Shown here piece by piece: positions 33,838 to 42,279 of a DNA stretch of 64,000 nt. The stretch lies in the NCBI GenBank assembly GCA_963771665.1, contig CAVYUK010000004.1, forward strand, positions 63,971-127,970, read 5' to 3'. Within the stretch, counting starts at the first letter, position 1, and the number at the start of each line of letters is the position of its first letter. The translations under genes and the position numbers were made by a program. The DNA comes from an uncultured Gammaproteobacteria bacterium (lineage in GTDB: Bacteria > Pseudomonadota > Gammaproteobacteria > Steroidobacterales > Steroidobacteraceae). Below the pieces are notes generated by a model. The model saw nothing but the letters and a program-made list of their open reading frames with translations, searched no databases and had not been told where the DNA came from.

Positions 33838-36800
33838 TTGACCACTGTAGTGCGCACATCCGCGAACAGACTCGAACGCATTGAAAGTGCGCAAGCGGAA
33901 CAACCGGAACTCCGATCTTGCCTGCATGAGCGCTTCGAACAGCAGGTTGAGCGCACGCCTGAAGCCTTAGCGCTGACCTGCGAAGGCGAGTCGCTGAGCT
34001 ACGCGCAGCTCAACCAACGGGCCAATCGTCTTGCCTATTACCTGCGTGATCGCGGCGCGGCCCCCGACCGGCTGATCGGCCTTCACGTCGAGCGTGGCAT
34101 GGATATGGTTGTGGGGATCATCGGCATCCTCAAGGCCGGCGCCGCCTACCTGCCGCTGGATCCCGTATACCCACGGGATCGGATCGCGTTCATGCTCGAG
34201 GACACGGGCGTGGGGCTGGTGGTCACTCAAGAGAGCCTTGTTGCGAACCTCGACGGTAACCCGGTGGAGCGGGTTCTGTTGGGCGAAACTCAATCGGAGT
34301 CAGACACCAATCCGACTGCAGTAACGACGGCCGATGGTCTGGCCTATGTGATCTATACCTCTGGGTCGACCGGTAAGCCCAAAGGCACCCTGGTCACTCA
34401 TCACAATGTCACTCGGCTGTTCGACGCCACTGAGCACTGGTATCACTTTAGCCAGCGCGACGTCTGGACGCTGTTTCATTCCTATGCATTTGATTTTTCG
34501 GTTTGGGAAATATGGGGAGCGCTGCTCTACGGAGGGCGCGTTGTCGTGGTGCCGCAGCGGATCAGTCGCTCTCCCGAGGATTTCAGGGAGTTGTTGGAGC
34601 ACGAGCGGGTTACGGTACTCAATCAGACCCCGTCGGCGTTCCGCCAATTGATGCAGGCGGAACTGGCCCAATCCAGCGGCAAATTATCGCTGCGCTACGT
34701 CATCTTCGGCGGCGAGGCGCTCGAATTACAAAGCCTGCGACCGTGGTTTGAGCGCTACGGTGACCAACAGCCGCTGCTCGTGAACATGTATGGCATTACC
34801 GAGACCACGGTACATGTCACTTTTAGACCGATCGGCCTGGCCGATTTGAATTCTGGCCAAGGCAGCGTCATCGGAGTGCCGATACCGGATCTGCAGCTCC
34901 ATATACTCGACCCGGCCGGCGAACTCTCGCCGGACGGAACCCCTGGCGAGATATACGTCGGGGGTGCCGGGGTGGCGCTCGGTTATCTGAATCGCGACGA
35001 ATTGACCGCGGAGCGCTTCATTTCCGATCCGTTCTCTCACGGAACCGGGGCGCGGCTTTACCGAACCGGTGACCTGGCGCGGCGCCTCGACAATGGTGAC
35101 ATCGAGTACCTTGGGCGTATCGATCGCCAGGTAAAGATTCGAGGCTTTCGCATCGAGTTGGGCGAGATCGAATCGGTCATCGCATCGCACTCGGCCATCA
35201 ACGAGGTCGCAGTCCTGGCGCGGGAGGACGTTCCTGGCGATCAGCGCCTGGTGGCCTACGTAGCGGCCACCGGTTCGCCGGGCGATCTCATCGAGCAGCT
35301 TCGTCACCGACTCCGTGCCGCGTTGCCGGAATACATGGTCCCTGCCCATTTTGTCAGCCTGGATAGGTTGCCGCTGACCGAAAATGGAAAGATTGATCGC
35401 CAGGCATTGCCGGTGCCTGACGATGCGTCTCCTGAGGCAGCCTACGTCGCGCCTCGTACGCCTACCGAGAGCGCCCTGGCCGTCATCTGGGCCGAAGTCC
35501 TCGGACTCAAACGTGTTGGTGTCGAGGACAACTTCTTCGAGCTGGGTGGTCACTCGCTGCTGGTAATGAGCGTGATCCAGCGCATGCGCCACGCAGGGTT
35601 TGATGCCGATGTAAGCAGCTTTTATCTTGCGTCCACGATCACGGCGTCAGCGGCTGCGGCGGCAGGTGCGGCAGCTGGCGGCAGTCGCGAGATCGAAGTG
35701 CCGGCTAACCTGATTCCGCCGGATTGTCAGGCCTTGACTCCTGACATGCTGCCCCTGGTTCAGTTGAGCACGGAGGAAATCGAATGCGTGGTGGCCGCCG
35801 TACCGGGCGGCGCAGCCAACATCCAGGACATCTATCCGCTGACGCCACTGCAGGAAGGGATGCTGTTCCATCATCGAATGGCCAGCCTCGGGGATACCTA
35901 CCTGGTGACGACTGTTTTCGGCTCCAGCAACCGCGAACTTCTCGACCGCTACCTGTGGGCGCTGCACCTGGTCATTGATCGTCACGACATTCTGCGCACC
36001 GTGTTTCTGTGGGAGGGCTTACCCGAGCCGGTTCAGGTGGTGTGCCGCCATGCGTCACTCATCGTTGAAACACTCAGCCTCGACCCGGCCGAAGGCGATA
36101 TCGCAAAACAGTTGGAACGGCGCTTTGATCCGCGCCATTACCGGCTTGATCTGGGGCACGCGCCGATCATCCGTGTGTTCATTGCCCAGGATGCACCGAA
36201 CGCGCGGTGGGTGATGCTGCGGATACACCATCACTTGTTGGAGGACCACACCACCGACGAATTGATGAGCGAGGAAATCCAGCAATGCCTGGACGGCCGG
36301 TCGGATCAATTGCCCGCGCCTTTGCCGTTCCGCAACTTCGTCGCCCGGACGAAGCTCGCAGCCCGTTCAGATGAGCAGCGGACATTTTTCCGCAACATGC
36401 TCAGCGACGTGGATGAGCCCACTTTGCCATTTGGCCTCACTGAATCACGGACCAATGCGTCGGAGATAAAAGAAGCGCGGGCTTTGGTGAATGTCGCCTT
36501 GGCCACCCGGGTACGAAATGCAGCCCGTAAGTGCGGGGCGAGCGCCGCGAGTCTCTTCCATCTCGCATGGGCGAAGGTCCTCTCACAGTGCTCCGGTCGG
36601 GACGATGTGGTGTTCGGTACCGTGCTGATCGGGCGCATGCACGCGGGACAGGGATCCGAGCGCGTGCTGGGGCCGTTCATCAATACTTTGCCGCTGCGCC
36701 TGCAGCTGGGCGAACTCAGCGTCGAGGATGGCATCCGCCAGACCCATAGCCGCCTGGCGCAGCTGCTTGGCCACGAGCATGCATCGCTTGCCGTGGCTCA

Positions 36801-42279: not shown

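Follow-up and report, generated by a model that had tools for sequence, protein, structure and literature searches.

A predicted Thr-Ser-Gly nonribosomal peptide synthetase with Dual E/C-type condensation domains and an upstream hydrolase-fold pair as candidate off-loading system

How does a nonribosomal peptide synthetase (NRPS) that ends at a carrier domain release its product, and can that product be taken to consist of L-residues when no epimerization domain is encoded? Both questions are raised by an NRPS gene from an uncultured gammaproteobacterium of the family Steroidobacteraceae, which lies in a 64,000-nt stretch of DNA (positions 63,971 to 127,970 of contig CAVYUK010000004.1, assembly GCA_963771665.1; hereafter the window). 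Upstream of the NRPS gene are two genes for proteins of the alpha/beta-hydrolase fold, which we call hyd2 and hyd1. We consider it fairly probable that the hyd2-hyd1-NRPS operon makes D-allo-Thr-D-Ser-Gly by means of C domains that belong to the Dual epimerization/condensation (E/C) type, with hyd1 off-loading the tripeptide and hyd2 assisting.

The NRPS gene (33838..42279, + strand) is the sole long open reading frame (ORF) in its region and encodes 2813 aa. Domain borders were taken from a Pfam search with the whole protein and then with in-frame pieces; the whole protein matches three AMP-binding, three AMP-binding_C, three PP-binding and two Condensation domains, and no other family, with E-values of 1e-280 to 1e-32, far past chance. 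The resulting order of adenylation (A), carrier (T) and condensation (C) domains is A-T-C-A-T-C-A-T: A1 (aa 33-518; 33934..35391), T1 (aa 546-603; 35473..35646), C1 (aa 663-1109; 35824..37164), A2 (aa 1130-1617; 37225..38688), T2 (aa 1647-1706; 38776..38955), C2 (aa 1760-2214; 39115..40479), A3 (aa 2234-2713; 40537..41976) and T3 (aa 2742-2794; 42061..42219), all on the + strand. The motifs FDxS, YGxTE and GKxDR, along with the A10 Lys, are found in A1, A2 and A3 alike, and each carrier has a GGHSL motif, with the serine at Ser573 (nt 35554-35556), Ser1673 (nt 38854-38856) and Ser2770 (nt 42145-42147). Both PF00668 stretches sit between a T and an A domain and have the HHxxxD form; Pfam found no E domain, that is, no extra Condensation-family stretch after a T domain. 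Searches with hidden Markov models (HMMs) found no starter C domain before A1, the Pfam match of which is preceded by 32 aa, and no thioesterase (TE), R, terminal C or other cis release domain after T3; the stop codon lies 43 aa past Ser2770, and the final 59 aa match PP-binding alone. On this domain content, the protein is itself an ordinary member of the modular (type I) NRPS class. An earlier note, made by reading the sequence alone, had set out the same domain order and carrier serines, a 43-aa tail and about 30 aa before A1, and the lack of starter C and release domains; Pfam and the HMMs bear all of this out, and no cryptic C-terminal release domain came to light. The note had also concluded that priming occurs in trans, which does not follow from the A-T start, because an A-T loading module is a standard start for a chain with a free amine.

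Substrates were predicted by aligning A1-A3 with MAFFT to the GrsA-PheA segment, which was checked to be identical to 1AMU residues 234-526, and reading positions 235, 236, 239, 278, 299, 301, 322, 330, 331 and 517 (GrsA-PheA numbering). The codes are DFWNIGMVHK for A1, DVWHISLVDK for A2 and DILQLGMVWK for A3; the GrsA control in the same alignment gives DAWTIAAICK. DFWNIGMVHK is listed among the signatures of Thr/Dhb modules (Dhb, dehydrobutyrine; PMC12283262). DVWHISLVDK is the exact code of module 1 of variovoracin RlpB, for which Ser is predicted, in agreement with the Ser-containing product (PMC12964202). The A3 code differs by one conservative change from DILQLGMIWK, recorded as a Gly code (PMC12283262). 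The alignment reproduces exactly the three codes that had earlier been extracted by eye, so the manual register was right, and the ATPVTWRLL block pointed out at that time is present in A3. The calls of Thr, Ser and Gly stand, and they are as good as predictions from specificity codes get.

Full-length orthologues were reached via loci seeded with hyd1, and the comparison indicates that both ends of the NRPS are real and not truncations. The orthologue in L083, a JGI metagenome locus, has 2809 aa and about 84% nucleotide identity; that in L087 (assembly GCA_025359205.1) has 2791 aa, its A and C domains being 69-80% identical (62-80% when all eight domains are counted). Both have the A-T-C-A-T-C-A-T order and three codes identical to those of the window NRPS, N-termini that are equally short or shorter, and tails of 40-46 aa past the last carrier Ser. 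The true start of the window gene may be GTG 33850 instead of TTG 33838, making the protein 4 aa shorter, since the closest full-length orthologue begins at about that position. L003 is less closely related (55-65% identity): its codes are of the Thr/Ser/Gly type, those of A2 and A3 each departing from the window's at a single position, and its E/C motifs are the same, yet this line terminates in a cis thioesterase and is without the hyd pair. The closest partial relative, L001 (15643-17844; ENA metagenome; 74% identity), has both hydrolases and modules 1-2; its sequence breaks off inside C2, without module 3, as an assembly artefact or a decayed copy. When genome contigs were scanned with A3-T3, no match was close enough for an orthologue; the highest, at 61%, is in an Ideonella metagenome-assembled genome. 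The relatives of the source organism are Burkholderiales-like.

The earlier note had described this line as having no epimerase. That is correct insofar as there is no stand-alone E domain; as a functional statement it does not hold, because the second His motif, the non-Gly C3 motif, the long T-C spacer and the similarity profile place C1 and C2 in the Dual E/C subtype. In Dual E/C domains, the N-terminal region holds a second His motif, HH[I/L]xxxxGD, which was checked as unique to the subtype (Rausch et al. 2007; PMC1894796). The motif of C2, HHLLTSEGD at aa 1775, fits exactly, and C1 has HHRMASLGD at aa 678. Pseudomonas E/C domains have HHxxxDH, or less often A or N at the last position, in place of HHxxxDG (PMC10531924); the C3 motif of C1, HHLLEDH at aa 798, fits the HHxxxDH form, and that of C2 is HHLMDDQ, at aa 1895. 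The spacer between the motifs known as T1 and C1 is about 92 aa in Dual domains and about 60 aa in LCL domains (PMC10212144). Here, the carrier Ser and the first condensation motif (YPL) are 92 aa apart for C1 and 89 aa apart for C2, and the distance from the Ser to HHxxxD is 225 and 222 aa, respectively, versus 180 aa in the LCL domain of PvdD. Similarity searches point the same way: in a phmmer search with C1, two C domains from a Pseudomonas syringae syringopeptin synthetase fragment, which have the same motifs as C1 and C2 and a Ser-to-HHxxxD distance of 220-225 aa, reach 461-470 bits, and the inter-module LCL domain of Pseudomonas aeruginosa PvdD (HHIVSDG, without a second motif) reaches 41 bits. 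The best PDB sequence matches of C1 are PvdL, McyB, TycB and SrfA-C, with LCL examples much weaker; we take the C domains of these four proteins to accept D-configured donors. The top NCBIfam model for the NRPS is solanimycin SolG, a C domain of which was put in the dual clade by NaPDoS (PMC10204066); the NRPS is not a SolG orthologue, because three stretches have to be added up before the SolG model exceeds its cutoff. Given the Dual E/C signature of both domains, epimerization is expected at both junctions, with D-residues or dehydro-residues in the product.

The second question, that of release, directs attention to the two upstream genes. hyd2 (32157..32912, + strand; 251 aa) encodes a protein of the alpha/beta-hydrolase fold matching Pfam Hydrolase_4 and Abhydrolase_6, and its ATG at 32157 agrees with the lengths of its homologues, 251-266 aa. 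hyd1 (32894..33748, + strand; 284 aa) encodes an alpha/beta hydrolase of Pfam Hydrolase_4 with a putative Cys nucleophile. The two reading frames overlap by 19 nt and the NRPS begins 89 nt past hyd1 on the same strand; as judged from this layout, hyd2-hyd1-NRPS is a compact three-gene operon. Cys119 of hyd1 (G-L-C119-S-G) aligns with the nucleophile Ser of the solved esterases 9pjb and 8b4u (GLSMGG), and is found in 119/120 homologues; Asp142 and His255 are found in 120/120. In an AlphaFold (AF2) model with pLDDT 82, residues 113-118 form a strand, Cys119 lies at the elbow and residues 120-129 form a helix, such that hyd1 is predicted to have the elbow nucleophile, acid and His of a catalytic alpha/beta hydrolase. 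The best Foldseek matches of hyd1 are Hydrolase_4-type lipases and feruloyl esterases, at a TM-score of about 0.6, and not PF00975 thioesterases. In hyd2, the position that aligns with the Ser nucleophile of 8b4u and 9pic is an Arg (G-V-R-A-G); among 20 homologues this position is Arg in 18, Gly in two, and Ser or Cys in none. Because the nucleophile position holds a conserved Arg, we presume that hyd2 is a non-catalytic partner of hyd1. The nearest curated families are exosortase-A-associated hydrolase 1 (TIGR03100) for hyd1 and hydrolase 2 (TIGR03101) for hyd2. A literature search for such a hydrolase pair, or for TIGR03100 and TIGR03101, returned nothing relevant, and the pair hyd2/hyd1 appears to be undescribed so far as a release system.

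We compared the surroundings of related modules in 79 loci from many phyla, seeded with A3-T3, a seed that carries a bias towards Gly. The hyd pair lies directly after 11 of the 27 T-terminated Gly modules in this set and after none of the 27 with a TE-sized tail (Fisher p = 2.7e-4); when all ORFs of these loci were clustered, no further accessory gene turned out to be conserved. Conversely, every context seeded with hyd1 contains a hyd2 partner, beside a carrier-terminated NRPS or polyketide synthase (PKS)-NRPS without PF00975. The hyd2-hyd1-NRPS synteny is found in L001, L083 and L087, and the order of hyd2 and hyd1 with its 19-nt overlap is kept in L083, L085, L087 and L091. The terminal A domain by the pair is Gly-like also in the hyd1-seeded loci with a readable code (L083, L087, L090 and L091); that the terminus is Gly almost without exception suggests a requirement of the pair for an unhindered thioester. 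From the synteny with the NRPS, the company of T-terminated lines and the absence beside TE-sized tails, we infer that the hyd pair substitutes for a TE, and hyd1 and hyd2 are probably the best candidates for off-loading this NRPS in trans.

Further genes accompany the pair. One contig with a hyd2/hyd1 pair also encodes, at L089 12766-13990 (to the locus edge), a 940-aa protein with AMP-binding, PP-binding and Hydrolase_4 domains; if its hydrolase domain is hyd-like, this fusion to an A-T didomain would support a carrier-directed role for the hydrolase type. Polysaccharide export and assembly genes (Poly_export, Wzz, flippase, Bac_transf, GT4) adjoin hyd-pair loci in three unrelated contigs (L087 1-7606; L090 11479-20280; L091 5399-6808), echoing the association of the nearest TIGR families with exosortase and extracellular polysaccharide. 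In the window, a TupA-like ATP-grasp gene (30872-31789, - strand) is divergent from hyd2; a fragment of such a gene is found in the same place in L083 and L084, and not in L087. Its product could ligate the carboxylate of the released tripeptide to something. A phosphopantetheinyl transferase (PPTase) of the Sfp type is encoded beside the cluster in the relatives L002, L085 and L091. Pfam on all large ORFs of the window and a motif scan, the latter a weak test, found no MbtH-like, PPTase or type II TE gene; the PPTase must be encoded elsewhere in the genome.

We propose the following sequence of events. The codes predict that L-Thr would be loaded on T1, L-Ser on T2 and Gly on T3, and from the domain order C1 would couple Thr to Ser, and C2 would couple Thr-Ser to Gly. 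If C1 and C2 act as their E/C subtype implies, the donor would be epimerized before each condensation, giving D-allo-Thr-D-Ser-Gly-S-T3 with a free N-terminal amine. hyd1 would then take the tripeptidyl thioester off T3, with Cys119 forming an acyl-S-enzyme through transthioesterification, and the chain would pass from Cys119 to water or to an acceptor. hyd2 may be an obligate non-catalytic partner in this step, for example by binding the carrier or the substrate. Since a Cys nucleophile recalls transferases and ring-forming TEs such as that of SulM, release could be non-hydrolytic. More tentatively, and as a possibility that we rate below even, hyd2/hyd1 may be a dedicated two-protein off-loading module that replaces the TE in Gly-terminated NRPS and PKS-NRPS lines of several phyla, that is kin to the exosortase-A hydrolase pair, and that may transfer the chain to an envelope glycan or lipid.

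Parts of this scheme have parallels in known systems. A trans-acting release enzyme for T-terminated NRPSs is known in the PBP-type cyclase SurE. As in SurE systems, the NRPS here ends in a T domain and release is proposed to fall to a separate protein encoded in the cluster; unlike SurE, which has a beta-lactamase/PBP (penicillin-binding protein) fold and is found in actinomycetes, the hyd pair consists of two alpha/beta-hydrolase proteins from Gram-negative bacteria and other phyla. TIGR03100 and TIGR03101 proteins, as we understand it, always come as a pair, with an acyl-CoA-ligase-like enzyme and a carrier protein as neighbours; unlike these exosortase A hydrolases, hyd1 and hyd2 score far under the family cutoffs and have a modular NRPS as their partner, and no exosortase or PEP-CTERM gene was found in the window. 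The TE of ObiF is, we believe, a Cys-dependent NRPS thioesterase akin to hyd1 in its nucleophile. The SulM TE likewise resembles the candidate hyd1 in being an alpha/beta-fold off-loading catalyst in which Cys replaces Ser, implying an acyl-thioester intermediate (PMC11298585). Unlike hyd1, the SulM and ObiF TEs are PF00975 domains that act in cis and close beta-lactam or beta-lactone rings, whereas hyd1 is free-standing, of the Hydrolase_4 type, paired with a nucleophile-less, paralogue-like partner, and found after a C-terminal Gly. For the condensation domains, the closest parallels are the Pseudomonas lipopeptide NRPSs (syringopeptin, arthrofactin) and SolG, which share the second His motif, a HHxxxD[non-G] motif and a T-C spacer of about 90 aa without separate E domains (PMC1894796, PMC10531924, PMC10204066). 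Unlike the Pseudomonas lipopeptide NRPSs, the NRPS of the window has three modules, an A-T start in place of a lipo-initiating starter C domain and a T end in place of tandem TEs, and its first E/C-type domain follows the loading module.

Several observations weigh against our proposal. The second His motif of C1 has Arg, and not Ile or Leu, at its third position, and orthologues of C1 likewise read HHR; the C3 motif of C2 is non-Gly, but its last residue is Gln, in contrast to the His, Ala or Asn of Pseudomonas E/C domains. Dual E/C domains come after C-A-T modules (Rausch et al. 2007; PMC1894796), whereas C1 comes after an A-T loading module and would thus meet an aminoacyl rather than a peptidyl donor. 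In Pseudomonas lipopeptides, E/C-type domains without epimerization number 74 versus 394 (74/468, about 16%; PMC10531924). As for release, 16 of the 27 T-terminated Gly modules are without the hyd pair, which is hence not the sole solution; the interaction of hyd1 with hyd2 is inferred solely from co-occurrence and translational coupling; and the scores against the nearest families are 64.8 bits for hyd1 with TIGR03100 (cutoff 168.45; E = 7e-18) and 92.3 bits for hyd2 with TIGR03101 (cutoff 202.75; E = 3e-26). The pair could also be an editing, and not a releasing, enzyme.

Alternatives to D-residues differ in what they ask of the C domains. Under the earlier interpretation, the product is all-L Thr-Ser-Gly, the C domains condense only, and release is due to enzymes encoded elsewhere in the genome. 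Some E/C-type domains are indeed inactive in epimerization (PMC10531924), Pfam detects no stand-alone E domain, and C1 deviates at one motif position and meets an aminoacyl donor; yet both C1 and C2 match the Dual E/C type in their signature, in the length of the spacer and in their profile of similarities (PMC1894796), and a conserved hydrolase pair that tracks TE-less lines is encoded in the same operon, so that we regard an all-L product released from afar as quite unlikely. A rather unlikely alternative is that C1 and/or C2 are "dehydrating C/E" domains converting Ser, perhaps Thr, to dehydroalanine (Dha) or Dhb, which would give, for example, Thr-Dha-Gly or 2-oxobutyryl/Dhb-Dha-Gly. Special dehydrating C/E domains have been proposed in a review (PMC10880069), and HHLMDDQ of C2 has the HHxxDDx form reported for the C domains of solanimycin SolF, SolG (the top NCBIfam match of the NRPS) and SolH, which belong to the dual clade and are the proposed makers of five Dha residues (PMC10204066). 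HHLLEDH of C1 is likewise acidic at the DD position, and C domains with HHxxDD[A/N] were found solely downstream of Thr modules in our homologue set, although the link between motif and function is putative and the sample is biased to Thr modules. However, the DD form is not kept in the orthologue of L087, where C2 reads HHVMIDQ; a Dhb residue at the N-terminus, its amine being free, would be unstable; and C1 is only weakly like the structurally characterised dehydrating AmbE-C (7r9x; E = 1.5e-16, versus 4e-45 for PvdL). C1 is no member of the AmbE-C2/AlbB-type dehydrating clade (CmodAA/DHC), its AmbE match lying far under its top PDB matches. Within the homologue set (P0003-P0115), the HHxxDD[A/N] examples after Thr-code A domains are from P. 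syringae syringopeptin-type synthetases, Xanthomonas, Delftia and Micromonospora, and the C3 forms HHxxLDH and HHxxGDH of dual-type C domains follow various residues. The product of the P. syringae syringopeptin-type synthetase is presumably rich in Dhb. HHxxDD[A/N] is a possible marker of Dhb-forming C/E domains, in a small and biased sample and with the motif not kept in L087.

Release, too, can be read otherwise. Where an NRPS cluster encodes a stand-alone alpha/beta hydrolase, this is often an editing thioesterase, and the hyd pair is absent from more than half of the T-terminated Gly modules; hyd1/hyd2 could thus be a proofreading (type II TE-like) or tailoring system, with release being spontaneous or due to a distant enzyme. 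We judge this to be very unlikely: editing TEs normally co-occur with cis TEs, whereas the pair is never found beside a TE-sized tail (0/27), and hyd1 and hyd2 belong to Hydrolase_4 and not to PF00975, with a Cys nucleophile and a nucleophile-less partner that are unlike type II TEs. It would also be conceivable, if highly improbable, that the assembly line is incomplete, with T3 handing the tripeptide to a ketosynthase III (KSIII), a carrier protein and an MBOAT protein, or to another synthetase, for extension or for attachment to lipid or polysaccharide. A FabH-like KSIII gene with an intact Cys-His-Asn triad (42320-43330, + strand) starts 40 nt past the NRPS stop on the same strand; it is adjoined by a gene for an 87-aa carrier protein with a GWDSL motif (43321-43584), which overlaps it and is translationally coupled to it, and by a convergent DltB/AlgI-like MBOAT gene (43588-45150, - strand). 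In L087 and L090 the hyd pair has polysaccharide genes on its flanks, and a FabH-like gene follows the pair in L085. However, the block from the FabH-like gene to a GT11 glycosyltransferase gene has 90% DNA identity to metagenome loci without an NRPS (L092-L095), with homology beginning at nt 42303, just past the NRPS stop; downstream of the orthologous NRPS there is a tRNA-Arg(CCG) in L083 and a CoA-transferase gene in L087; no FabH or MBOAT homologue was found in any other related locus; and the DNA from 42.3 to 54.2 kb appears to be an insertion, the same tRNA-Arg being found at its far end beside an IS481-type transposase gene. Release by the hyd2/hyd1 pair remains the reading that we favour.

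The insertion is delimited by comparison with L083. Because the NRPS of that locus abuts the tRNA-Arg(CCG) that in the window lies at 54259-54335 (- strand), beside the IS481-family transposase gene (53033-54220), 42303-54258 looks like an insertion of about 12 kb between the NRPS and its ancestral tRNA neighbour, at a tRNA-proximal site. The tRNA-Arg of the window keeps the short flank seen in L083 (GCCCGGTTAGGACC), and the GC content of 42303-54258 is 0.56-0.60, versus 0.63-0.69 in the outer flanks. On the synteny in L092-L095, L083 and L087, we reject the FabH-like KSIII as an off-loading or priming partner of the NRPS. On the same ground, we reject a transfer of the peptide, in the manner of Dlt systems, from T3 to the MBOAT protein; the module has its own 87-aa carrier protein. 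Besides these genes, the segment includes a gene for a 333-aa protein adjoining the MBOAT gene (45165-46166, - strand), which has no Pfam, NCBIfam or PDB sequence match, and the GT11 glycosyltransferase gene (46194-47177). From its gene content, the FabH-carrier-MBOAT-GT11 module may carry out carrier-dependent O-acylation of a surface glycan, with the KSIII replacing a DltA-like ligase. A 168-aa ORF (47729-48235, - strand) corresponds to the C-terminal half of the FGE-sulfatase domain, matching profile positions 112-255 only, and is probably a truncated gene remnant in the inserted segment.

Elsewhere in the window, 15671-24728 holds genes for a TPR-CHAT protease-like protein (795 aa), a TPS-domain two-partner-secretion exoprotein (1353 aa), a ShlB/FhaC-type transporter (553 aa) and an OmpA-family protein; this four-gene cluster is unrelated to the NRPS. 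At 27045-29598 (- strand), an adaptive-response set comprises Ada (a methyltransferase with an AraC helix-turn-helix domain) followed by two 2OG-Fe(II) oxygenases (AlkB-like and PF09859), and lies at the left edge of a dip in GC content that starts near 30 kb.

The NRPS itself is routine, and its product would be small, hydrophilic and without a known role. Nonetheless, Dual E/C domains hide epimerization, and stereochemistry calls made from missing E domains are thus unsafe in proteobacterial NRPSs. The hyd pair may explain many of the T-terminated "orphan" lines seen in metagenomes. Should its role in release be confirmed, the pair would represent a new off-loading logic for NRPS and PKS lines, would improve product prediction for TE-less clusters, and would offer a first way into the function of the related exosortase-associated hydrolase families.

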